Shown here piece after piece: positions 1,994 through 59,023 of a stretch of 64,000 nt of DNA. Made by a program: the position numbers and the translations under genes. This stretch comes from Myxococcales bacterium (GTDB lineage Bacteria > Myxococcota_A > Polyangia > Polyangiales > Polyangiaceae), in assembly GCA_009692485.1 (NCBI GenBank), contig SHZB01000001.1, positions 48,960-112,959 on the forward strand, read 5' to 3'. The notes beneath the pieces are model-generated. The model was not told the DNA's origin. It was given only the letters and a program-made list of their open reading frames with translations, and did not search any database. How positions within the stretch are numbered: position 1 is the stretch's first letter; every line of letters starts with the position of its first letter.

Positions 1994-3169
1994 TCAATGG
2001 TCGACGGCGCGGGCGGCCTCGGTCCGTGGTGTCGTCCGCTCGCGCCAGCGAAAGCGCGGCAAAAAGCGGTTTTCTGCGCCGAGCACAGCGTCGGCGATGA
2101 GCTCTCCGAGGACCGGCGTGAACTTGAAGGCGTGGCCGCTGTCTCCCGCCGCGACGGTGACACCGGGCCGCTCGGGCACGCGCGCGATGATGAAGTCGCC
2201 GTCGAAGCTGTCGCCATAAAGGCACAGGCGGCTCGCATGCAGCGGGGCGTCCGCGAGGGCCGGGAGCGCCTCGGCGAGGAAGGACCGAAGGCGCGCCTCG
2301 AACGCGGCTGGCACGAGCCGCGGGGCGTCGAGCTCGACCGGAATTCCGGGGCCGTGGTGGGCGATCTTGACGAGGCCGTCGCGCGTGGCGGAGAAGCCGT
2401 ACCAACCGCTGCGTGCGATCTCGGCGGTGAAGGGAACGAAGTGCGGCGGACGAAATGGCGCGGGATCGGCGGGCCTCAACAAGAACACCGGCTGGCCAAT
2501 CGCGCGCACGCGGTCGGCGAGTTCGGGCAAGAGCTGACACACCCACGCACCGGTCGTGACCACGACGTGATCGGCCTCGATCGTCGTGCCGTCGGCGCAC
2601 TCGATGCCGGTGTGATCGAGGTGCGCGTGCCCTGGCAAGCGCCGCGCTCGAACACCCTCGCGTAGCTCGACGCCAAGGAGCCGGGCCTCCGCGATGAGCG
2701 CGCGCAGAACCTCGCCGCTCTCTGCCCAGCCGCCGACCGGATTGAAGTAGCCATCGAGGTAGCCACCTTCAGAAAACGCCGGAAAACGCGCCAAAATCGT
2801 GTCGCAATTGAGTCGCTCGAGGGGGTATCCGCGGGCCGATAGCAGCGTGAAGCTATCGTGCTCGAACTCGCCCGGCATCATCGCGGAGCGGGTCAGACAC
2901 ACGAGCCCGGTCTCGTGAAAGAGCGGACGCGGGCGCTCGGAAGTTTGCGCGCGCCATCGCGTGAGCGCGAGCTCCATCAGCTCGGTGTAGAGGACGTCAC
3001 CGCCGTAGTCGGCGCGGATCAATTTGCTGACGTCGTTCGAGGCGGCGTCGGCATGTGGAAGTGGCCCCGGGTCAACGAGCACCACCTCGTGACCGCGACG
3101 GCGAAGCTCGAGCGCGGCGCTCAGCCCGAACGCACCGGCGCCGACGACGAGAATGCGCGACGAGGCCAT
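1994..3169 (-). CDS. FAD-dependent oxidoreductase (DAO / sarcosine-oxidase-like)
   Basis: 391-aa ORF. N-terminal Rossmann motif ILVVGAGAFGLSAALELRRRGHEVVLVD. ATG at 3169. Confidence 0.8.
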   Translation of the reverse strand: MASSRILVVGAGAFGLSAALELRRRGHEVVLVDPGPLPHADAASNDVSKLIRADYGGDVLYTELMELALTRWRAQTSERPRPLFHETGLVCLTRSAMMPGEFEHDSFTLLSARGYPLERLNCDTILARFPAFSEGGYLDGYFNPVGGWAESGEVLRALIAEARLLGVELREGVRARRLPGHAHLDHTGIECADGTTIEADHVVVTTGAWVCQLLPELADRVRAIGQPVFLLRPADPAPFRPPHFVPFTAEIARSGWYGFSATRDGLVKIAHHGPGIPVELDAPRLVPAAFEARLRSFLAEALPALADAPLHASRLCLYGDSFDGDFIIARVPERPGVTVAAGDSGHAFKFTPVLGELIADAVLGAENRFLPRFRWRERTTPRTEAARAVDH

Positions 3170-3183
3170 ACCTACTTCTCTAG

Positions 3184-3295
3184 TGTGCCCATCACCCTGC
3201 GTCTTTCACGCTGTGCCCATCACATCGCGTCGTTCACGCAGTGCCCATCCCGCTGCGTCGTTCACGCAGTGCCCATCACATCGCGTCGTTCACAC
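3184..3295. repeat. 4 x 28-bp tandem direct repeat (consensus GTGCCCATCACATCGCGTCGTTCACGCA) in a divergent intergenic region
   Basis: Units at 3184-3211, 3212-3239, 3240-3267 and 3268-3295, read directly from the sequence. On the minus strand they parse as chained mini-ORFs (see findings). Confidence 0.95.
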
Positions 3296-3376
3296 TGCCT
3301 CTTGACGTTGGGCAATTGCCCGGAGGAGGGGCGCGCTGTAAGAGCCGACGCGAGGCTGAGGCGGACGGACGACAGC

Positions 3377-3781
3377 ATGACGAACGACAGCATGACGAAC
3401 GACACGAGCGACGGCGAAGTGCAAGAGGGCGCGACCGAGGGCGAAGTGCAAGAGGGCGCGACCGAGGGCATCAAGCCGGCGGGTCGCGAGCTGACCGGAA
3501 AACAGCGGCGGCACTTGCGCGCGCTCGGCCATCACCTCGTGCCGCTCGTGCAGGTGGGCAAGGGCGGCGTCACTTCGGGCGTGGTGGCCTCGGTGCGGGC
3601 GGCTCTCCTTACGCATGAGCTGGTGAAGGTGAAGCGTAGCGGCGAGTGTCCGGCGAAGCGGGCGGACATCGCGGTGGAGCTTGCGAGCGCGCTCGGCGCG
3701 GCGATCGCCCAGGAGCTTGGTCACACGATCTTGTTTTACAAGCGCCACCCGAAGAAACCCGTCATCGTCTTGCCGCGCTAG
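3377..3781 (+). CDS. yhbY: ribosome-assembly RNA-binding protein YhbY (CRM/CRS1-YhbY domain)
   Basis: The C-terminal ~97 aa are LTGKQRRHLRALGHHLVPLVQVGKGGVTSGVVASVRAALLTHELVKVK...GHTILFYKRHP, which is the YhbY fold. Start set at the first ATG (3377). The upstream part of the 307-aa track ORF lies in the repeat region. The N-terminus carries 15-bp x2 and 27-bp x2 in-frame repeats. Confidence 0.8.
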   Translation: MTNDSMTNDTSDGEVQEGATEGEVQEGATEGIKPAGRELTGKQRRHLRALGHHLVPLVQVGKGGVTSGVVASVRAALLTHELVKVKRSGECPAKRADIAVELASALGAAIAQELGHTILFYKRHPKKPVIVLPR

Positions 3782-3799
3782 CTCGCTGAGGTTTGCGCG

Positions 3800-6061
3800 A
3801 TGCTTCGAGCGAAACGAATCACCTGCGTCGGCGCGGGACCCGCGGGGCTGTATCTCGCGGCGCTCTTGAAGAAGCGTGCGCCCGAGCTCGACATCGAGGT
3901 GGTGGAGCGCAATCGCGCCGGCGAGACCTTCGGGTTTGGTGTCGTGTTTTCGGACGCGACGATGCACCACCTCGCGGCGGCCGATCCGGAGACGCACCAG
4001 GCGATCACGTCGTCCTTTTGGCACTGGGACGACATCGACACGTACTGGAAGGGAACGCGCCGGCGCTCTACCGGTCACGGATTTGCGGGTGTTTCGCGCA
4101 AGCGGCTGCTCGAGATCCTTGCTGGGCGTTGTCGAGAGCTTGGGGTCTCGCTCCGCTTCGGAGAAGAGGTGACCGACCTCGACGCGCTCGATGCTGAGTG
4201 TGACTTGCTGGTCGGCGCCGATGGTGCGGCGAGCCTCGTGCGCGCGCGCTGGGCCGAGGCCTTCGCGCCGACGGTGGACGAGCGGCCCAATCGCTTCGTG
4301 TGGCTCGGGACGACGTATCCCTTCGATGCGTTCACGTTCTATTTCAAAGAGAACGCGCACGGCTTGTTCCGCGTGCATGCGTACCGATACGAGCCGGGCC
4401 TCTCGACCTTCATCGTCGAGTGTACCGACGAGACCTTCGCCGCAGCGGGGCTCTCGGTCCATGACGAAGAGCGCACGGTCGCGTACATCAGCGAGCTCTT
4501 TCGTGAGGAGCTTGGCGGCCATCCGCTACAACGAAATCGCTCGATTTGGCGGCGATTTCCGACGATTTCGAACGAGCGTTGGCACGACGGCAAGCGCGTC
4601 CTCATCGGCGACGCCGTGCACACCGCGCATTTTTCGGTCGGCAGCGGCACGAAGCTCGCGATGGAGGATGCGATCGCGCTCGCGGACTGTCTGCACGAGG
4701 GCGGCACGCTCAAAGAGCAGCTCGACAGCTACGAGCAGCGGCGACGCGCGGACGTGGCGGCGGTGCAGCGGGCCGCGCAGCAGAGTCTCGAGTGGTTCGA
4801 GCACGTCGAGCGTTATCGCGAGATGGCCCCGGTGGAGTTCGAGTTCAGCATGCTGACGCGCAGCCTGCGGGTCACGCACGAGGGGCTGAAACAGCGCGAT
4901 CCGGCGCTCGTTCGCGAGCTCGACGCGTGGTTTGCGAAGCGCGCGGCCGACGCCACCGGACGCGACGTGCCGGCCGACACGCCGCCGATGTTCACGCCGC
5001 TTCGGCTGCGCGAGCTCGTCTTGGAGAACCGCGTCGTCGTGTCACCGATGTGCCAATACAGCGCGAACGACGGCCGCATCGACGACTGGCATTTGGTTCA
5101 CCTCGGGAGTCGCGCGGTCGGAGGCGCGGGCCTCATCGTCACCGAGATGACCGACGTGAGTCCCGAGGGTCGCATCACGCCGGGGTGCGCGGGCATGTAC
5201 CTCCCCGAGCACGTCACCGCTTGGCGGCGCGTCACCGAGTTCGTCCACGAGCACTCGTACGGCAAGCTCGCCATGCAGCTCGCGCACGCCGGTCGCAAAG
5301 GTGCCACCAAGCGCATGTGGGACGGTATGGACATGCCGCTCGACACCGAAGCGTGGCCGATCGCGTCGAGCTCGCCGATCCCGTATTTGCCCGTGAGCCA
5401 GGTGCCGCGTGAGCTCACGCGCGCGGACATGGTGCTCGTGCGAGACGACTTCGTGCGCGCCGCGGAGATGGCCGACGAGGCCGGGTTCGACATGCTCGAG
5501 CTCCACTTCGCGCACGGCTATCTGCTCGCGTGTTTTCTCTCGCCGCTCACGAATCGGCGCGAGGACGAGTACGGCGGCGCGGTCGAGAATCGCCTGCGAT
5601 TTCCGCTCGAGGTCTTCGATGCGGTGCGCGCTCGCTGGCCGGCGCACAAACCGATCAGCGTGCGCATCAGCGCGACGGACTGGGTCCACGGCGGCAACGA
5701 CGGGGACACGGCGGTGGTGATCGCGCGGACGCTGCATGCCCATGGCTGCGACATCCTCGACGTGTCCGCGGGCCAGACCGTGCGCGAGCAGCGGCCGAAA
5801 TATGGGCGATTGTTCCAAACGCCGTTCAGCGATCGGGTGCGTCACGAGGTCGGGATCCCGACGATGACGGTGGGCGCGATCTCGAGCTACGCGGACGTGA
5901 ACAGCATCTTGGCCGCGGGCCGCGCCGATCTCTGCATGCTCGCGCGCGCGCACCTCTTCGATCCGTACTGGACCCGCCACGCCGCGTACGAGCAGGGTCA
6001 CCGCCTGCCCTGGCCGAAGCAATACGCGAGCCTCGAGAAGTACACGCACCGCTTCAAGTGA
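3800..6061 (+). CDS. fused FAD monooxygenase / Old-Yellow-Enzyme flavin oxidoreductase (salicylyl-CoA 5-hydroxylase-type bifunctional protein)
   Basis: 753 aa. The N-half has [17 protein letters not shown] and [22 protein letters not shown] (aromatic-ring hydroxylase). The C-half has VVSPMCQY and [25 protein letters not shown] (OYE/NADH:flavin oxidoreductase). Confidence 0.75.
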
Positions 6062-50436: not shown

Positions 50437-51465
50437 TCAGGGCTTCGGGTGCGCGAGGAAGAAGTCGAACAAGGCAGCCTTGAACTCACCCTTGAAGCCC
50501 GGCAAATGCTGGCTTCCGACGAGCTTCCACTGCTCGACGAGGCTCGCGCCCTCGCAGCCGATGTCCCAGCGCGTCACCTTCGTCTCGCTGCCCACGATGA
50601 CCGTGAGATCTTTGTCCGCGGGCGTCTCGTCGGCCGTGAGCGAGCAGCCGTTCAGCATGGCCCAGGTCTCCGAAGTCTCGAGCGCGCCCGGGTACTCCCC
50701 GCCGAAGAGCTTGCCGCCTCCATAGAGGATCGTCGGATCGAGCGAGCCATGGACGACGAGGGCAGTGACCGGCTCGCTGGGCTTGCATTGCGTCTCGTCT
50801 TTGTACGTCGCGCCCGCGAGCGAGCCGAAGGCGGCGATGGCGTCGGCATGTTCACACGCCATGCGATGGGACATGAAGCCGCCGTTCGAGTGGCCGAAGA
50901 AATAGACGCGCTTGGCATCGACCGTGTACGCCTGCTTGATCTCGTCGATGACCTGACGCAGGTAGCCGGAGTCGTCCACGTCACTGCCGTTGAAGTTGCA
51001 GCATGCGTCGGTGGCATTCCAGAATCGCTGTCCGCGCTTGTCGAAGGTGCCATCGGGATACGCGTACAAAAAGCCGTGTTTGTCGGCCATTTCGGTGAAG
51101 CCGAGGTAAATCTCCTGCACCTTGCCGCTGGCCGTGTAGCCGTGCAGCAAGATCAACAGCGGCGCGGGCTCGGCTGGATCGTAGCCGGGCGGAACGTGCA
51201 CCGTGACCGGCCGGTCGCCGCCGATCACGCCGTCGAAGCCGCTGCCCGAGCTCGGATTCGAGGCACCCGCGCCGCCAGTGCCCGTGCCGTTCGCATTCGT
51301 GCCGTTCGTGCCCGAGCTTGCCCCTTGCCCAGCGCTGCCGCCGCCCGCGCCGCCCGCACTCGTGTGCGTCTCGAACCCGGTCGTCGTGTCCGTCCCGCAG
51401 CCGAGAATGCCGGCCGCCAGAAGTGCGGCCGCGAGTGTCTGAAATGCCAGTCTCGGTAATGCCAT
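50437..51465 (-). CDS. secreted esterase, PHB-depolymerase/LpqC-like alpha/beta hydrolase (lipoprotein)
   Basis: MALPRLAFQTLAAALLAAGILGCG lipobox. PLLILLHGYTASG and VYFFGHSNGGFMSHRMA (GxSxG). The track ORF extends in frame to ATG 51609 through 15-bp repeats. Confidence 0.7.
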   Translation of the reverse strand: MALPRLAFQTLAAALLAAGILGCGTDTTTGFETHTSAGGAGGGSAGQGASSGTNGTNANGTGTGGAGASNPSSGSGFDGVIGGDRPVTVHVPPGYDPAEPAPLLILLHGYTASGKVQEIYLGFTEMADKHGFLYAYPDGTFDKRGQRFWNATDACCNFNGSDVDDSGYLRQVIDEIKQAYTVDAKRVYFFGHSNGGFMSHRMACEHADAIAAFGSLAGATYKDETQCKPSEPVTALVVHGSLDPTILYGGGKLFGGEYPGALETSETWAMLNGCSLTADETPADKDLTVIVGSETKVTRWDIGCEGASLVEQWKLVGSQHLPGFKGEFKAALFDFFLAHPKP

Positions 51466-51589
51466 TGTTGGAATTGCCCTAATAGGTAATGCCCTAATCG
51501 GGAATGCCATAGTCGGGAATGCCATAGTCGGGAATGCCATAGTCGGGAATGCCATTGGCGGTAATCCGAGCCTCGGTATTGCCACCTTC
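51455..51589. repeat. about 9 x 15-bp tandem repeat (GG(G/T)AATGCCATAGTC) covering the start-codon neighbourhood of the esterase gene
   Basis: Units every 15 bp from 51455 to 51589. Three are perfect copies (51500-51544). On the minus strand in frame they read PTMAF repeats with ATGs at protein positions 19, 24, 29, 34 and 49 of the long ORF. Confidence 0.9.
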
Positions 51590-51617
51590 GTCGGTCGCGT
51601 ACGGGACATGGGCCGAG

Positions 51618-52901
51618 CTACATATCAGACTTCGCGGACGGCGCGGCTCGGCGTTCGGCGGCGCGGGCGTGGGCTTCGAGCCCTTCGAGGCGGGCCAGAA
51701 TAGCGGCGTCGCGTGCGAGTTCGCGATCATTGCCAGTACCGTCGAGACGCAAGAAGGTGCGGACACGAAGAAAGGTCATCACCGAGAGTCCGCCGGTGTA
51801 GCGCGCCGTTCCGCCCGTGGGCAGCACGTGATTGGGACCGGCACCGTAGTCTCCGAAGACCTCCGCGGAGCCCGGGCCGATGAAGATGGCGCCGTAATGA
51901 GAGAGCCGCTTCGAGCGCTCGTGTGCGTCGGCGGTCATGACCTCGAGGTGCTCGGGCGCGAGCTTGTCCGACGCGGCGATGCCTTCATCGGGCGTGCACA
52001 CCAACGCGAAGCCGTTTTCGAGCGCGCGGGCCGCGAGTTCCCGAGTCGAGAGCCCTTCGAGCTGAGTCGCGAGCGCACGATTGACCGCTTCGGCATGCGC
52101 CCGCGTGGTCGTGATCACGATCGGCAAGGCGTCGCTCGCATGCTCGGCTTGCGCCAGCAGATCGGCGGCGATCAGCTCGGGATCAGCGGCCTCGTCCGCG
52201 AGCACGACCAGCTCGCTTGGACCGGCGAGCATATCGATCGCGACGCGGCCATGGACGAGCTTCTTGGCGGCGGTGACCCAGCGATTTCCGGGGCCGACGA
52301 TGATGTCGACGGCCGGGATCGAGGCCGTGCCGTAAGCCAGCGCGGAGATGGCGTGGGCACCACCTGCGGCGAGCAAACTATCGGCGCCCGCGAGCGCGGC
52401 GGCGGCCATCGTGACTTGTGTAGGCCGGGGGCTCGCGACCCACACCGACCGAACGCCGGCGACGCGCGCGGTGATCGCGGTCATGAGCACGCTCGAGGGC
52501 AGGGGATAGCCGCCGCCGGGCGCATAACATCCCGCGCGCTCGACCGGGGCTATCGTGTGGCCCGCGCTGCCACCCGCGACGGCGAGCTCGAGTGGGGCGA
52601 GCGACGCGCGTTGGGCCTCGGCAAATCGCGTGATTCGCGCTGCTGTACGCTCGAGCACGCCGCGCGCATCGGAGCCGAGTGACGCGAGCGCATAGATGAG
52701 CTGTGCTCGCGGAATGACGAGCGCATCGGTGTCGCCGAGGCCGTCGTGCTGGCATGCGTAGCGACGAAGCGCGGCATCACCCCCGGCGTGAACGTCGTTC
52801 ACGATTTGGCTAGCAGCCGCGAGCGTGTCGGTGTCGATGGCCGCGCGCCGCTCGACGAATCGCTCGAGCTCCGCAAGCGCGATGAGCTTCAAGCCACTCA
52901 C
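51618..52901 (-). CDS. hisD: histidinol dehydrogenase
   Basis: GCYAPGGGYPLPSSVLM, IIVGPGNRWVTAAKK, LLAQAEHASDA and GDYGAGPNHVLPTGGTARY. The GTG start at 52901 overlaps an upstream TGA. The rest of the 725-aa track ORF is an upstream shadow. Confidence 0.92.
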   Translation of the reverse strand: MSGLKLIALAELERFVERRAAIDTDTLAAASQIVNDVHAGGDAALRRYACQHDGLGDTDALVIPRAQLIYALASLGSDARGVLERTAARITRFAEAQRASLAPLELAVAGGSAGHTIAPVERAGCYAPGGGYPLPSSVLMTAITARVAGVRSVWVASPRPTQVTMAAAALAGADSLLAAGGAHAISALAYGTASIPAVDIIVGPGNRWVTAAKKLVHGRVAIDMLAGPSELVVLADEAADPELIAADLLAQAEHASDALPIVITTTRAHAEAVNRALATQLEGLSTRELAARALENGFALVCTPDEGIAASDKLAPEHLEVMTADAHERSKRLSHYGAIFIGPGSAEVFGDYGAGPNHVLPTGGTARYTGGLSVMTFLRVRTFLRLDGTGNDRELARDAAILARLEGLEAHARAAERRAAPSAKSDM

Positions 52902-52972
52902 TTCGCGTCTCCCTCGCGCCGCTCGACGAATCGCTCGAGCTTCGCGATCGCGATGAGCTTCAAGCTGCTCAC
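52827..52972 (-). repeat. 71-bp tandem duplication of the hisIE-stop/hisD-start junction, creating a 24-codon chimeric mini-ORF
   Basis: TCACTTCGCGTC occurs at 52898 and 52969. CGCGCCGCTCGACGAATCGCTCGAGCT.CGC...CGCGATGAGCTTCAAGC is present twice. The mini-ORF 52898-52972 reads VSSLKLIAIAKLERFVERREGDAK. Confidence 0.9.
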
Positions 52973-54222
52973 TTCGCGTCCCCGGGCCGGCGCGTGATCT
53001 TGCGTGCGCGTGCCTCGAGGATCTGCTCGACCTCGGTGAGCGAGACGCCGGCCTTCGCCATCCGGACGAGCGTGAAATAGAGGACATCGGCCGCCTCGTG
53101 CGCGACCTCGTCGTGACTCGCCGCAAGACCAAGCTCGCCCGCCTCTTCGATGAGCTTCTTGCGGAGCAGCTCGGGCTCGTGGAGGAGCCGCGCGGTGTAC
53201 GAGCCCGCTGGTGCGTCGGTGGCGCGGCCGCGCAGCACCTCAGCGAGCGCGGGCATGCCGCCGAGCGCACCCCAACAGCTCGTTGTGCCGGTGTGGCAAA
53301 AGCCCGGGCCTGCCTGCACGACGGTGAAGCGCAGCGCGTCTCTGTCGCAGTCGAGGTCCACGCGCACGAGCCGTTGTGTGGCGCCGCTCGATGCGCCCTT
53401 GTGCCAGAGGCCGCGTTGGCGCGAATGGTAGATTCCGGTGCGGGTCGCGATCGCAGCACGCAGACTCTCGCGACTCGACCAGCATTGTCCGAGCGCGCGC
53501 CCGTGCTCATCGACGACGACCGTCGCAAAGAGGCCGTCCGCGCGATCGCTGACGAGCGGTGCCGCGAACGCATCGCCGAGCTCCATGTGGCCTTGGTAGA
53601 GCGCCATGCCGACTTGCGCGTCGATGCCGAGTTTGTCGAGCGCAGCGACTTCCGCGACCGTGGTGACGCCTCCGGCGATCGTGAGCGAAGCGTCTCCGGC
53701 GGCGTCGCGCAGCTCTCTTGCGCGCTCGAGATCGGTGCCTCCGAGCCGGCCCTCGCGCTCGACGAAGGTGACGAGAAACCCGCCGACGACATCACGCAAT
53801 TCGCGCATCCGCTCGGGCACGCTCGCGCCGGTCTTGGTGCGCCAGCCCTCGACGACGACCTCTCCGTCGAGCGCGTCGAGCGCCGCGATCAGCCGTGATT
53901 TCGGCAATTGACGCAGCAGCTCCGGAGTTGCGGCGGTGCCGAGGATGAGCTTCTCCGCGCCGGCATCGAGCGCTTCGACAGCACGCGCGACGCTGCGGAT
54001 CCCGCCTCCGACGCGGCAGCGTGCGACCCGGCACACTCGCTCGACCAGCGCGCGGTTGTCACCCGTGCCGAGCGCCGCATCGAGATCGATCAACGCCAGC
54101 TCGCCGATGACCCCGAAGCGCTCCGCGATCGGCAGCGGGCAGCCGGCCTCGAGCGCCAAGTCGCGCCCCCCGACGAGCTGCACGGTCTGGCCGCCCATCA
54201 AATCGATTGAAGGAATAATCAC
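52969..54222 (-). CDS. hisA-hisIE: trifunctional fusion HisA (ProFAR isomerase) - HisI (PR-AMP cyclohydrolase) - HisE (PR-ATP diphosphatase)
   Basis: N-terminal IIPSIDLMGGQTVQLVGG...GGGIRS...TIAGGV (HisA barrel). Middle YHSRQRGLWHKGASSGATQRLVRVDLDCDRDALRFTV..CHTG (HisI). C-terminal SYTARLL..KKLIEEAGE...EAADVLYF (HisE). The GTG start overlaps an upstream TGA. Confidence 0.85.
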   Translation of the reverse strand: MIIPSIDLMGGQTVQLVGGRDLALEAGCPLPIAERFGVIGELALIDLDAALGTGDNRALVERVCRVARCRVGGGIRSVARAVEALDAGAEKLILGTAATPELLRQLPKSRLIAALDALDGEVVVEGWRTKTGASVPERMRELRDVVGGFLVTFVEREGRLGGTDLERARELRDAAGDASLTIAGGVTTVAEVAALDKLGIDAQVGMALYQGHMELGDAFAAPLVSDRADGLFATVVVDEHGRALGQCWSSRESLRAAIATRTGIYHSRQRGLWHKGASSGATQRLVRVDLDCDRDALRFTVVQAGPGFCHTGTTSCWGALGGMPALAEVLRGRATDAPAGSYTARLLHEPELLRKKLIEEAGELGLAASHDEVAHEAADVLYFTLVRMAKAGVSLTEVEQILEARARKITRRPGDAK

Positions 54223-54288
54223 ATTCGCACCGGGCTCTGTTCCGGCGTCGAGTACGGCGCCGCAAGGATCACATTCGCACCGGGATTT
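54219..54288 (-). repeat. 50-bp-spaced duplication of the hisF-stop/hisA-start junction (CCCGGTGCGAATGTGAT x2), creating a 17-codon mini-ORF
   Basis: TCACATTCGCACCGGG occurs at 54219 and 54269. The mini-ORF 54219-54272 reads VILAAPYSTPEQSPVRM. Confidence 0.9.
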
Positions 54289-55027: not shown

Positions 55028-55632
55028 GCGCGCACCTTCGCGAGCCAGCGCCCGAGCAGCGCGTGTCCCCATGCGCCGCTCAGCTCGGGATGAAATTGAC
55101 ACGCGAGCAACGCCCCCTTTTCGAGCGCGGCGACGAAGGGACTTCCGTGCACGGCGAGCGCCCCCGAGTAGCCAGCGGGGAGCGCATCGAGCCGATACGA
55201 GTTCGCGAAATAGGCATGCCCGCTCGCGAGCAGCGTCGAGTCCAGGGCGGGCTCGACCAGGTTCCAGCCGAGCTGCGGCACGACCAGCCCCGCGCGATCT
55301 TCAAATCGTCGCACCGCCGCGTCGATCACGCCGAGGCCGGAAATTCCGGGACTTTCTTCGCTTTCGCGACACAAGAGCTGAAGGCCGAGACACACGCACA
55401 ACAGGGCTCGGCCCTCACGCGCGCGCTTCGTGAGCGCCACGGCGAGCCCCGTCGCCTCGAGCCGCGCCATGCCCGCACCGAACGCGCCGACCCCCGGCAA
55501 CACCACGCGCTCGGCGGCGGCGACGACGCTCGCATCGGTCGACAGCCGGGGCGCGGCACCGACGCGAACGAGGGCGGCGCACACCGAGGCGAGGTTCGCC
55601 GTGCCGGTATCGACGACGATGACCTCGCTCAC
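55021..55632 (-). CDS. hisH: imidazole glycerol phosphate synthase glutamine amidotransferase subunit
   Basis: VIVVDTGTANLASV, LPGVGAFG, LCVCLGLQLL and FHPELS. The GTG at 55632 overlaps the stop of the last mini-ORF. Confidence 0.9.
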   Translation of the reverse strand: MSEVIVVDTGTANLASVCAALVRVGAAPRLSTDASVVAAAERVVLPGVGAFGAGMARLEATGLAVALTKRAREGRALLCVCLGLQLLCRESEESPGISGLGVIDAAVRRFEDRAGLVVPQLGWNLVEPALDSTLLASGHAYFANSYRLDALPAGYSGALAVHGSPFVAALEKGALLACQFHPELSGAWGHALLGRWLAKVRAC

Positions 55633-55775
55633 GAGAGCGCCTCGCCGCTCGGAGCGAACGCGCATGTCTTCATCGCAAGCACCGCGTCATCGAAGGCACC
55701 GCGTCATTGCAAGCACCGCGTCATCGCAAGCACCGCGTCATCGAAAGCACCGCGTCATCGAGAGCACCGCGTCAC
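55629..55775 (-). repeat. six 17-bp tandem units plus one 45-nt ORF forming seven chained mini-ORFs between hisB and hisH
   Basis: Plus-strand CATCG(C/A)A(A/G)GCACCGCGT units. The minus-strand stops at 55772, 55755, 55738, 55721, 55704, 55687, 55670 and 55629 each overlap the next GTG/ATG by 4 nt. Confidence 0.95.
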
Positions 55776-56371
55776 AAGACGCCCTTCGTGCTGGCGATGT
55801 CCGTGCCGGTGATCGCCACGGCTTGCCGCAGCGCGACTGCCAACGCTTTGAACGCGGCCTCGGCCCGGTGATGATCGTGCTCGCCCTTGAGGACCTCGAC
55901 GTGCAGCGCCGAGCGCGACGCCATCGCGAGCGACTGCATGACGTGGGTCACACACTCGCACGAGAGGTTGCCGAGCTTCTCGCGACGCAGCCCGAGATTG
56001 ATCGCCGGCCACGGGCGCCCCGACAGATCGATCACCGCGCGGGCCAGCGCCTCGTCGAGCGGCGCATACCCATGACCGAAGCGCGCGATCCCGACCCGCT
56101 CGCCCAGCGCTTGATCGAGCGCCTTTCCGAGCGCGATCCCGCAGTCTTCGCTCGTGTGGTGATCGTCCACCTCGAGATCCCCCTGGCAGCTCAGCTCGAG
56201 ATCGAAGCGCGCGTGTTTGACGAGGGTCGTGAGCATGTGATCGAGAAACCCAATCCCGGTCGCGATGCGGCTCACGCCGGTGCCGTCGAGGTTCAGCGAC
56301 AAGGCCACGCTCGTCTCGTTGGTCTTGCGCGCGATCGTGGCCTGTCGTGGCGGGGTGGCGATGGCGTTCAT
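55772..56371 (-). CDS. hisB: imidazoleglycerol-phosphate dehydratase (monofunctional)
   Basis: ARKTNETSVALSLNLDG, GIGFLDHML, DDHHTSEDCGIALG and GEHDHHRAEAAFKA. ATG 56371 overlaps the mini-ORF stop as ATGA. The upstream TTG at 56392 is less likely. Confidence 0.93.
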   Translation of the reverse strand: MNAIATPPRQATIARKTNETSVALSLNLDGTGVSRIATGIGFLDHMLTTLVKHARFDLELSCQGDLEVDDHHTSEDCGIALGKALDQALGERVGIARFGHGYAPLDEALARAVIDLSGRPWPAINLGLRREKLGNLSCECVTHVMQSLAMASRSALHVEVLKGEHDHHRAEAAFKALAVALRQAVAITGTDIASTKGVL

Positions 56372-56430
56372 GATTCGTCGATGGTGCTCCAAAAACTGAA
56401 GTCGAGCGCTCGGTGTGCGATGGCGTTCAT
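56368..56430 (-). repeat. 59-bp-spaced duplication of the hisC-stop/hisB-start junction (ATGAACGCCATCGC x2), giving a 20-codon mini-ORF
   Basis: The mini-ORF MNAIAHRALDFSFWSTIDES starts on the ATGA overlapping the hisC-HAD stop (56427-29). It ends on the ATGA overlapping the hisB start (56368-71). Confidence 0.9.
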
Positions 56431-58133
56431 AGCCTCGTCGAGCCCGCTCCGCGAAGGGAAGTCAGCCGCTCTAGCTCATCGAGCGTGGACAAGAGTCGTC
56501 CCGCGCCGGCCGCGACGAGTCCATCGCCGTTGTAGCCGAGCGGCACGACCCCGGCCGCGCGGGCTGCGAGCACGTCATCGCGGGTGTCGCCCACCAGCCA
56601 CGCAGAGCTCACGTTGAGCAGGGCGAGCGCGCGCAGCACCGGCTCGGGGCTTGGCTTCAGCGGCGCGTCCTCCATGCACACCAGCGTCTTGAACAAGGGC
56701 GCGAGCTCGAAGCGCGCGAGGAAGCGTTCGGCGTCGGCGCGCGGTCGGCCGGTGACGATGCCAAGCGGCAGACGGGCGGCGAGGCGCTCGAGCAATTCAC
56801 GCGCACACAAGAGCGTCTCTTGTTCGTGAAGTCCCGCAATTCCCTGCGTTTCGTCGCCTTGGTAGAGCAACTCGAAGCGCGCCTTCACGTCCGCGAACGC
56901 CGCTGTGACCCCGTGCTCAAGGAGCAGCGCGTGGGTCAGGTGCCAGTCGTTGTTCGCGTCGCCCGCGGCCTTTTTTCGCGCCACGTCTTCGTGTGTCACG
57001 ACTGCGCCGAAGCTCGCTGCGGTCGCAATGATCGCCTCCCGATACGACCCGCGCACGTCGGCGAGCACACCGTCCATATCGAAGAGCAGCGCCTCGGGGG
57101 CGAGCACCGCATCGAGCGCCGCCGAGAGCCGCGCGAAGGCTGGTTCATCCGACGGACACGTGATGCGCGCCATGCCGTCGAGCTTGCCGTGGCCCGGCCA
57201 GATGCGCACGGCGATCCCAAGTCCCGCGAGCCCGTCGCAGAACCACTCGGCGTCCCTCGGCCGCGCGAGGACGAAGTTTGCCTGCGACGGGTGCGCCACG
57301 CATCCGAGCCTCTCGAGTCGCTCGCCGAGCCGCGTTCGCTCGATCTTTACCTGCGCGACATGGCGGCGCATGTGCGGCTCACCCTCGTCGAGCCATCGCA
57401 TCGCGAGCGCCACCGCCGGCGAGCTGACGGCATACGGTTGCCCCGTCCCACGCAGCCAGTCGATGACCAAGGGCTGCGCGATGACGTAGCCGACCCGCAG
57501 TCCGGCGAGGCCCCACGCTTTCGACAGCGTGCGAAACACGAGCGCGTTTTCGTATGCGAGCGCCGTGTGCGTGAGGTCTTCGTCGGCGAACTCGGCATAC
57601 GCGAGATCGACGAACAGCGCCGCATCGCCCGCGGCCTCGGCCACGCGCCGAAGCTCGCCCGCGGTGATCGCCGCGCCGGTAGGATTGTTCGGCGTGACGA
57701 GCGCGACCGCCCCCGTGTTTGCGTTCAGCTCGCGCAGGACCGCATCCACGGGATACGCGCCCGTTGGCCACGGCACCTCGCGCACCGTCGCGCCCGCGAG
57801 CGCCGCGTAGCGCGGAAGCATCTCGAAGGTGGGCACCGGCAACACGAGCTCGCGACCCGGCCACAACAGCGCTTGGCATGCCCGCGCGAGCGCATCGTCG
57901 GCGCCGCAGGTCGTCAAGACGCAGTCGGGCCCGACTCCGAGGCGAGCCGCGAGCTTGCGTTCGAGCGCGCGCGCGTCGGGATAGCGCCGCAACAGCTCTG
58001 CTGACTCCAGCGCAGCGAGCAAGCCCACGGGTGGCAGCGGCCCCTCGTTGCTGTCGAGCTTCAAGTCGATGGGCGCACCGTGCCGCGGCACGTGATAGCT
58101 GCCCTGGCGCGCGATGACGGGATTCGGCTTCAT
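56427..58133 (-). CDS. hisC: histidinol-phosphate aminotransferase fused to a C-terminal HAD-superfamily phosphatase domain
   Basis: The N-terminal ~355 aa have DLKLDSNEGP, NPNNPTG and FRTLSKAWGLAGLRVGY (PLP Lys). The C-terminal ~210 aa have LLFDMDGVLADV, GIVTGRPR and LVGDTRDDVLAARAAG (HAD motifs I-IV). An alternative GTG start at 58154 overlaps the hisG stop. Confidence 0.88.
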   Translation of the reverse strand: MKPNPVIARQGSYHVPRHGAPIDLKLDSNEGPLPPVGLLAALESAELLRRYPDARALERKLAARLGVGPDCVLTTCGADDALARACQALLWPGRELVLPVPTFEMLPRYAALAGATVREVPWPTGAYPVDAVLRELNANTGAVALVTPNNPTGAAITAGELRRVAEAAGDAALFVDLAYAEFADEDLTHTALAYENALVFRTLSKAWGLAGLRVGYVIAQPLVIDWLRGTGQPYAVSSPAVALAMRWLDEGEPHMRRHVAQVKIERTRLGERLERLGCVAHPSQANFVLARPRDAEWFCDGLAGLGIAVRIWPGHGKLDGMARITCPSDEPAFARLSAALDAVLAPEALLFDMDGVLADVRGSYREAIIATAASFGAVVTHEDVARKKAAGDANNDWHLTHALLLEHGVTAAFADVKARFELLYQGDETQGIAGLHEQETLLCARELLERLAARLPLGIVTGRPRADAERFLARFELAPLFKTLVCMEDAPLKPSPEPVLRALALLNVSSAWLVGDTRDDVLAARAAGVVPLGYNGDGLVAAGAGRLLSTLDELERLTSLRGAGSTRL

Positions 58134-58150
58134 GGCAGCGCGCTGCCCGC

Positions 58151-59023
58151 TCACGGCACGATCTGCATCAGGCGCGACACCACGATATCGGTGCCGCCGC
58201 GGGCCTTGAGCTCGGGGATGAGCCGCGGGAGCAACTCGCGTGGAACCGCGGCTTTTACGGCAAATGCGTCCGAACCGGCGAGCGGCGACACGGTCGGCTG
58301 GCGCATGCAAGGCAAGGCCGCAATCACGCTCGCGAGCGCGCTCGCCGCCACGTTCACTTCGAGCATGACGCGCTTCCTTGCGTCGAGCACCGACCGCAAG
58401 ACCAGCACCAGCTCTTCCAGCGCGGCGCGTTTGTGCGGCACCTCGAGCGCCCGGCGACTGGCATAGAGGCGCGTGGAAGAACGCAGCAGCTCATCGATGA
58501 TCGCCAGCCCGTTCTGCGCCAGCGTCGCGCCCGTGGCGGTGTTGTCGACGATGCAGTCGGCGTCCTCCGGCGGAAACACCTCGGTCGCGCCATACGAGCG
58601 CACGAAGGTCGCATCGAGCCCGCGCCGCGCGATCCATCCGCGCGCGAGCCGTTCGTACTCGGAGGCGACGACGACCCGGCGGGTCGGCAGCGCGCCATCG
58701 ACGAGCAGCTCTTCGGGTGCTGCCGCCACGATCCGCACCGGATCGAGCTCGGTGTCGAGCAGCTCCACGACGTCGGCCTCCAGCTCTTCTACCCAGTCGG
58801 CCCCGCCAAACCCGACATCGCGCGTGCCGATATGCAGCATCTCGATGATGTTCTGCGGCTTCAGCACCTTGGTGACCGTGTCCGGCAGCGACACCACCGG
58901 TCGATAGCCGCGCTCCGCGAGCCGCACGCCGATCCCCGCGTCCTCGAGCAGCGTGACGACGCCGCGTTGCATATGCCCCTTCGGCAGGGCGAGCTTGAGA
59001 GTGGGATCGAATGAACTAGGCAT
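58151..59023 (-). CDS. hisG: ATP phosphoribosyltransferase (long form)
   Basis: LKLALPKGHMQ, DVGFGGADWV and a C-terminal regulatory domain. ATG at 59023. Confidence 0.9.
   Translation of the reverse strand: MPSSFDPTLKLALPKGHMQRGVVTLLEDAGIGVRLAERGYRPVVSLPDTVTKVLKPQNIIEMLHIGTRDVGFGGADWVEELEADVVELLDTELDPVRIVAAAPEELLVDGALPTRRVVVASEYERLARGWIARRGLDATFVRSYGATEVFPPEDADCIVDNTATGATLAQNGLAIIDELLRSSTRLYASRRALEVPHKRAALEELVLVLRSVLDARKRVMLEVNVAASALASVIAALPCMRQPTVSPLAGSDAFAVKAAVPRELLPRLIPELKARGGTDIVVSRLMQIVP

Follow-up and report, generated by a model that had tools for sequence, protein, structure and literature searches.

The closest described counterparts of the repeats reported here are the MIRUs of Mycobacterium. 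In the articles that summarise Supply et al. (1997) (PMC12548453 and PMC3184786), MIRUs are described as tandem units located in operon junctions, which serve as VNTR markers. They form a family that is dispersed over about 40-50 loci and has one consensus, and their insertion is proposed to be transposition-like, with 4-nt direct repeats; the ends of the internal ORF overlap the neighbouring ORFs at -4 nt (PMC12548453). Of 12 MIRU loci, 9 have a unit size in the class 2 mod 3 (53 or 77 bp). No intergenic distance is more frequent in prokaryotes than an overlap of -4 nt with the sequence ATGA or GTGA, and it supports efficient coupling by termination-reinitiation (Huber et al. 2019, 2023; PMC6728339, PMC10666635), which is almost abolished by an untranslated spacer of 20-38 nt (PMC10666635). 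It has also been described that a short upstream ORF can hand ribosomes on to the downstream gene to which it is coupled (PMC12548453).

The locus analysed in this study belongs to a metagenome-assembled genome (MAG) of Myxococcota, annotated as Myxococcales, in contrast to the Mycobacterium hosts of MIRU. The whole stretch of DNA that was analysed, 64 kb in length, is referred to as the window. As in MIRU, short tandem units were found inside an operon: a 71-nt unit is present twice at the hisA-IE/hisD junction, and the ORF of the unit is joined to its neighbours at -4 nt at both ends. The periods found here, 71, 65, 59, 50, and 17 nt, are all 2 mod 3, as are the 53 and 77 bp of MIRU. The copy number of MIRUs differs between strains; among the present repeats such variation was seen for the analogous 65-nt unit of a sister lineage (L082-L084), and the 71-nt unit comes from a single genome. 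However, unlike MIRU, each unit copies the ends of its own flanking genes; there is no shared consensus, and none of the units is dispersed within the 64-kb window. No description of an in-situ junction duplication was found in the searchable literature.

The operon is encoded on the minus strand and carries genes for histidine biosynthesis in the order hisG, hisC/HAD, hisB, hisH, hisF, hisA-IE, and hisD. No terminator- or promoter-like site was found on its coding strand. The arrangement in which the hisA-IE fusion is followed directly by hisD is kept in nearly all of 80 related loci from species-representative genomes. The features of the hisA-IE/hisD junction are as follows.

52969..54222, minus strand: hisA-hisIE fusion gene, 417 aa (ORF list; NCBIfam HisA at residues 2-220 and HisIE at residues 226-407)
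51618..52901, minus strand: hisD, 427 aa, GTG start at 52901 (TIGR00069, 414 bits; N-terminal alignment with P0002 and others)
52913..52983, minus strand: copy A of the 71-nt unit; the hisIE tail GGGGACGCGAAG is followed by the GTGA overlap and by 19 codons copied from the start of hisD
52842..52912, minus strand: copy B of the 71-nt unit; a duplicate of the hisIE tail is followed by the GTGA overlap and by the genuine 5' end of hisD
52898..52972, minus strand: chimeric 24-codon mini-ORF VSSLKLIAIAKLERFVERREGDAK (ORF list; frame walk)
52909..52915, minus strand: GAGGGAG, an SD-like sequence located 7 nt ahead of the GTG of hisD

Two gene fusions are present in this operon, HisA-HisIE (52969..54222, minus strand) and aminotransferase-HAD phosphatase (56427..58154, minus strand). 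The HisA-HisIE fusion is conserved across MAGs of Myxococcota, Planctomycetota, and Acidobacteriota. The other fusion, between a class I/II aminotransferase and a HAD phosphatase, is probably hisC plus histidinol-phosphatase.

The preliminary description of this DNA had claimed a 71-bp tandem duplication at the hisIE/hisD junction, and the duplication was borne out by several comparisons. TRF gave one array at 52844..52980 with a period of 71, 1.9 copies, 92% matches, no indels, and a score of 239. When the sequence was compared position by position at an offset of 71, 65 of 72 positions were identical (52983..52912 against 52912..52841), including 61 of 66 in the core, and alignment of the hisA-IE/hisD spacer against the 5' end of hisD gave a z of 33.8; the two copies are thus clearly homologous, far above chance. 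A 32-nt probe taken from the unit had exactly 2 matches in the window and none in 100 shuffles. The limits of the repeat had been placed at 52827..52972, whereas its actual span is 52842..52983. In addition, the upstream gene had been called hisIE; its tail, ...RRPGDAK-TGA, was read correctly, but the gene is the hisA-hisIE fusion of 417 aa and not hisIE alone.

The 71-nt unit is made of local gene ends: it covers about five codons at the end of hisA-IE, the overlapping stop and start (GTGA), and codons 1-19 of hisD. The copies stand head to tail in tandem and differ at about 6-7 positions, with about three non-synonymous and two synonymous differences, a number too small to show constraint on the peptide of the mini-ORF. 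Polarisation with the outgroup indicated changes in each of the two copies: the mini-ORF copy keeps Ser3 and the AGC of codon 2, and hisD keeps Glu11. A Logan assembly of run SRR8561391 is identical to the window over 53258..51526. The two-copy state is a real tandem duplication of the local gene junction.

A frame walk reproduced exactly the chain of ORFs proposed earlier, which runs from the hisIE stop through the mini-ORF to hisD. The stop codon of hisA-IE, at the end of ...RRPGDAK-TGA, is the TGA at 52971..52969, which is overlapped by the GTG at 52972. From this GTG the mini-ORF is read to the TGA at 52900..52898, which in turn overlaps the hisD GTG at 52901, giving GTGA at both ends. The mini-ORF had been regarded as a copy of the N-terminus of HisD joined to a copy of the C-terminus of HisIE, and it indeed carries the GDAK tail and a HisD head homologous to that of the outgroup. 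The period of 71, which is 2 mod 3, was likewise confirmed by TRF, and the NTGA chain is unbroken.

The protein encoded from the GTG at 52901 has the N-terminus VSGLKLIALAELERFVERRAAID. This start codon, rather than one further downstream, agrees with the N-termini of the homologues, and it was also called by another gene caller on Logan contig L001. The SD-like GAGGGAG pairs with the anti-SD at -8.5 kcal/mol, compared with -5.7 kcal/mol for the equivalent stretch of copy A. The presence of an SD-like sequence belonging to hisD itself does not contradict the duplication, because GAGGGAG sits within the duplicated copy. The copy of the hisIE tail in copy B, which holds this SD, is now non-essential. 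Two substitutions suggest that the SD of copy B may have improved after release from the constraint of the HisIE C-terminus.

Subsequently, the junction was compared with those of relatives. The nearest relative, with 76% HisD identity, was a single lineage among 5.8 billion proteins searched, all others showing at most 68%; the best HisD identity in a scan of genome contigs was 67%, and a metagenome scan with an invariant 26-mer found nothing. P0121, the second member of the cluster and a candidate for a closer relative, turned out to be the over-extended hisD annotation of the window itself. The nearest relative has the same gene order with a single GTGA overlap at hisA-IE/hisD (L082-L085), and its HisD starts with MSSLKLAAFSELD; the N-terminus of the window HisD is homologous to this outgroup sequence (MSSLKL...). 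A direct 4-nt NTGA overlap at hisA-IE/hisD was found in 44 of 76 related loci, and the R-x-GDAK motif at the C-terminus of HisIE is conserved and present in many relatives. A duplication at the hisA-IE/hisD junction occurred in no other locus among the 76, and the relatives with long hisA-IE/hisD spacers had no trace of an old duplication (z at most 2.9). The 71-nt unit is carried by one genome only. Given the single 4-nt overlap of the nearest relative and of 44 of the 76 loci, it is the two-copy state that is derived, and the duplication spans an overlapping gene junction, as had been proposed.

The same junction has expanded differently in a Bradymonadales MAG (L016), where the hexamer ACGACC in 10.5 copies fills the hisA-IE/hisD spacer at 3912..3974. 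In five related loci (L044, L057, L064, L068, and L078; about 2600..5300 in each), the hisA-IE frame runs without a stop codon to the end of hisD, which suggests a triple HisA-HisIE-HisD fusion in some MAGs of Polyangia, Phycisphaerales, and Planctomycetales.

An unbiased scan for short-range direct repeats containing NTGA yielded exactly four junction repeats in the his operon, one of which is the 71-nt repeat. The other three are as follows.

54219..54272, minus strand: hisF/hisA-IE 17-codon candidate relay ORF VILAAPYSTPEQSPVRM, flanked by exact 17-mer repeats
55629..55775, minus strand: hisB/hisH array of 17 nt x 6 (TGACGCGGTGCTNNCGA) (TRF; sequence; frame chain)
56368..56430, minus strand: hisC-HAD/hisB 20-codon candidate relay ORF MNAIAHRALDFSFWSTIDES, with the repeat ATGAACGCCATCGC

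At hisB/hisH, TRF gave a 17-nt period in 6.2 copies at 55670..55774, and each unit contains ATGA. The chain leads from the hisB stop through six 6-codon ORFs (MTRC[FL]R) and a 14-codon ORF to the hisH GTG at 55632, with NTGA at every step; an alternative hisH start, the ATG at 55665, lies 4 nt past the stop of the last unit. The corresponding junction in the nearest relative is a 4-nt overlap. The copy number of this array was taken from the window assembly, as the Logan contigs break inside the array. The 17-mer unit has 6 matches in the 64 kb, all in this one array, and is not dispersed.

At hisF/hisA-IE, the exact 17-mer CCCGGTGCGAATGTGAT occurs at 54284..54268 and 54234..54218 (offset 50) and brackets a short ORF whose head resembles HisA and whose tail resembles HisF. 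At hisC-HAD/hisB (junction 56358..56430), two copies of ATGAACGCCATCGC, at 56430 and 56371 (offset 59), enclose a short ORF that begins with MNAIA, which is the N-terminus of HisB. This head points to the ATG at 56371 (199 aa) as the start of hisB, and not to that of a longer TTG ORF. This junction was also found in Logan contig L089. The operon junction repeats other than the 71-nt repeat each had p < 1/3000. The interiors of the 50-nt and 59-nt cases had no significant homology to the flanking genes, and these two are therefore treated as probable older events and not as proven ones.

Taken together, four of the six junctions of the his operon are expanded, with spacings of 59, 17, 50, and 71 nt. 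All of them are 2 mod 3, and every link is therefore still an NTGA overlap. The four units are unrelated to one another in sequence. With a filter for coding-like flanks, these four were the only such chains in the 64-kb window. A naive scan for NTGA chains between any long ORFs gave 24 against a null mean of 29; spurious long ORFs are so frequent at this GC content that the scan carried no information. A gene map from GC3 alone was too strict or too noisy. When the 65-nt repeat described below is included, the chance that all five spacings (71, 65, 59, 50, and 17) are 2 mod 3 is p of about 0.004, or 0.03 among non-multiples of 3, values that presuppose an independence of the five that may be incomplete. 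Among all short-range repeats in the scan, classes 1 and 2 mod 3 were about equal (17 vs 20). The window is rich in repeats, with 37 TRF rows in 64 kb, mostly intergenic, and this density is unusually high.

The nearest relative (including NCBI GCA_005778345.1) carries a duplication of its own at the hisF/hisA-IE junction. It has a period of 65 nt, which is 2 mod 3, with about 92% identity, and it encodes MIIPAINRMDGLAAAAELPVRT, in which the N-terminus of HisA is joined to the C-terminus of HisF. The repeat spans are as follows.

L082, 3537..3670: 65-nt repeat at the hisF/hisA-IE junction
L084, 3472..3670: 65-nt repeat at the hisF/hisA-IE junction

L082 and L083 have one extra 65-nt unit and L084 has two, whereas the 1.5 kb on each side is 99.93% identical; this copy-number variation is VNTR behaviour. 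The analogous 65-nt repeat is present in four separate assemblies of the sister species. About 700 kb of sequence from some 80 other lineages yielded no additional junction duplication, and the one candidate, in L045, was an in-frame repeat inside a Cys-rich protein. A spacer upstream of hisB in the sister lineage also differs between assemblies (L082 1380..1575 vs L083 1485..1575). It holds an 18-nt repeat, CCCGACACTTCGCCTGCG, which reads PDTSPA; its ORF starts on a TGATG overlap, and the assemblies differ by 105 nt, so that it is a VNTR with no chain to hisB.

How could the duplication at hisA-IE/hisD have arisen and persisted? We consider it probable that a 71-nt tandem duplication formed in situ and persisted by preserving termination-reinitiation coupling, with the peptide of the mini-ORF as a by-product. 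A lineage-specific event, probably slippage or unequal exchange, would have copied 71 nt across the ancestral 4-nt hisA-IE/hisD overlap. From the old hisD start in the upstream copy, a frame of 24 codons would then run to the duplicated hisIE stop; because 71 = 3 x 24 - 1, this frame ends exactly on that stop, which again overlaps the real hisD start. The duplication, its derived state, the geometry of the overlaps, the recurrence, and the variable copy number in the sister species are established; we infer that the mini-ORF is translated, that it acts as a relay, and that junction duplications are filtered by selection according to their period. Ribosomes finishing hisA-IE would reinitiate on the mini-ORF, and a second termination-reinitiation would deliver them to hisD, where reinitiation may be aided by the GAGGGAG SD that now lies in dispensable sequence. 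Since coupling fails beyond about 20-38 nt of untranslated sequence, the 67-nt gap would uncouple hisD if there were no relay ORF.

With any period of 3n-1, a start in the upstream copy would be read to a duplicated stop that overlaps the real start. With a period of 1 mod 3, out-of-frame ribosomes would cross the hisD start, and with a period of 0 mod 3 the N-terminus of HisD would be extended. The duplication could thus have persisted because a spacing of 2 mod 3 neither breaks the coupling nor lets ribosomes cross the hisD start in the wrong frame. Other NTGA junctions of the operon and of the sister lineage would have been affected in the same way, resulting in MIRU-like arrays. A relay function of the mini-ORF is plausible. 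At hisB/hisH, however, seven serial reinitiations are probably inefficient, so the relay cannot be the whole story there.

Every link of these chains is the canonical -4 overlap known from termination-reinitiation pairs, and such an overlap is ancestral at these his junctions. Unlike in such pairs, however, coupling here would be indirect, with at least one intermediate ORF without a function of its own between the two genes. In plasmid R1, the 24-codon tap ORF upstream of repA is an upstream ORF that delivers ribosomes. The mini-ORF is likewise small, and no role is proposed for it other than to terminate at the start codon of the gene that follows. In contrast to tap-type ORFs, which lie in 5' leaders and rely on de novo initiation, it is located between operon genes, is coupled upstream in the proposed mechanism, and can be traced back to the duplication of a junction. 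The head-to-tail copies, the decay of identity with age, and the variation in copy number are features of ordinary VNTRs and slipped-strand duplications. What sets the present repeats apart from ordinary VNTRs is that they are placed exactly across the stop/start overlaps of essential biosynthetic genes, with a period class that keeps the frame chain.

Several other explanations were weighed against the proposed preservation of coupling. It is exceedingly improbable that the repeat is an artefact of assembly or a chimera of strains, even though the source is a metagenome-assembled genome: the joint between copy A and copy B needs reads of its own, the Logan assembly is identical over 1.7 kb, and four separate assemblies of the sister species carry the analogous 65-nt repeat. 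As the two copies differ at 7 positions, they do not represent a simple expansion error. An equally slight chance is left to the reading of the public annotation, MSP23646.1 (489 aa), in which hisD truly starts upstream and the repeat lies within the coding sequence. In this annotation hisD begins at the ATG at 53087, 62 codons upstream of the start supported by homology, and its frame is indeed open over these codons. The extension (52901..53087, minus strand), however, crosses both repeat copies, overlaps hisA-IE by 119 nt, is rich in Arg and Ser, and is off-frame and present in no homologue. Furthermore, the family model begins at residue 31 of the 427-aa form, and the other gene caller chose 52901. 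Because the extension is Arg/Ser-rich, off-frame, and without a homologue, the start of MSP23646.1 was almost certainly miscalled as a consequence of the duplication. That the mini-ORF is functional in itself, as a micropeptide or as a histidine-sensing leader or attenuator, is very unlikely. In its favour, its frame has stayed intact despite about 8% divergence between the copies; yet this frame was open by construction at birth and has received few substitutions since. The mini-ORF contains no His codons as read from the sequence, and the RNA fold of the junction was no better than those of shuffles (z = 0.08). There was no Rfam match across the his operon, no Pfam match for three relay peptides including that of the mini-ORF, and no terminator, and its identity as a histidine leader or attenuator was rejected on the absence of a His codon, the fold z of 0.08, and the absence of an Rfam match.

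It is similarly hard to maintain that a mobile or dispersed element of the MIRU type was inserted at the hisD start codon, a reading with only a very small probability. It draws on the location of MIRUs, which lie at start codons and whose internal ORF is coupled at -4 nt (PMC12548453), and on their units of 53 and 77 bp, which also belong to the class 2 mod 3. The 71-nt unit, however, consists of the local GDAK tail of HisIE and the N-terminus of HisD, it occurs only twice in the window, and the four junction units are unrelated, so that an insertion is already largely refuted. More serious, though still doubtful, is the reading of the duplication as a neutral relic. According to this reading, translation of hisD starts from the SD of that gene, the mini-ORF either plays no part or is not translated at all, and the spacing of 2 mod 3 arose by coincidence in a repeat-prone genome. 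Because hisD has a good SD of its own, independent initiation is possible, and the pairing at -8.5 kcal/mol fits such a relic. The same is true of the 37 TRF rows in 64 kb, mostly intergenic, and of the overall near equality of classes 1 and 2 mod 3 (17 vs 20), and the substitutions are too few for power to detect constraint on the mini-ORF. Against mere coincidence stands the finding that the four operon junction repeats and the independent 65-nt repeat are all 2 mod 3, with every NTGA link kept. The preferred reading remains that the duplication probably persisted by preserving the coupling.

The 71-nt case alone is a small evolutionary curiosity. However, a single frame rule is followed throughout the junction duplications of two sister lineages, of which at least three are well supported and five are probable. 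If coupling passes through the intermediate ORFs as proposed, overlapping bacterial genes could separate without losing translational coupling, and intermediate stages of this separation are still readable. Coding sequence would then be a source of intercistronic spacers and small ORFs. The rule predicted from the mechanism is that the periods of surviving junction duplications are 2 mod 3. The junction duplications also offer a concrete model for an in-situ origin of MIRU-type repeats, which are usually described as mobile. A wider generalisation, which we regard as improbable, is a 'junction stutter', an evolutionary process of its own that recurs and in which NTGA overlaps are duplicated in situ and only 2-mod-3 periods survive; the copy-variable relay arrays would be heritable rheostats of downstream translation and the origin of MIRU-like intercistronic repeats before their dispersal. 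Since the duplication misled the public annotation, making hisD 62 codons too long, similar cases are probably hidden in other genomes.

Two other repeats of the window were noted. At 3184..3297, a 28/56-nt tandem repeat (GCGTGAACGACGCGATGTGATGGGCACT x 4, minus strand) lies in a divergent promoter region, with a YhbY-like gene on one side and a gene for an FAD-type oxidoreductase on the other. It has 9 nt in common with the 17-mer but, given its place in a divergent promoter region, was rejected as a junction repeat; the repeats could be binding sites for a regulator. The other is a 15-nt repeat in 6.9 copies at 51453..51584, which encodes MAFPT repeats in the N-terminal region of an esterase-like gene just downstream of hisD.
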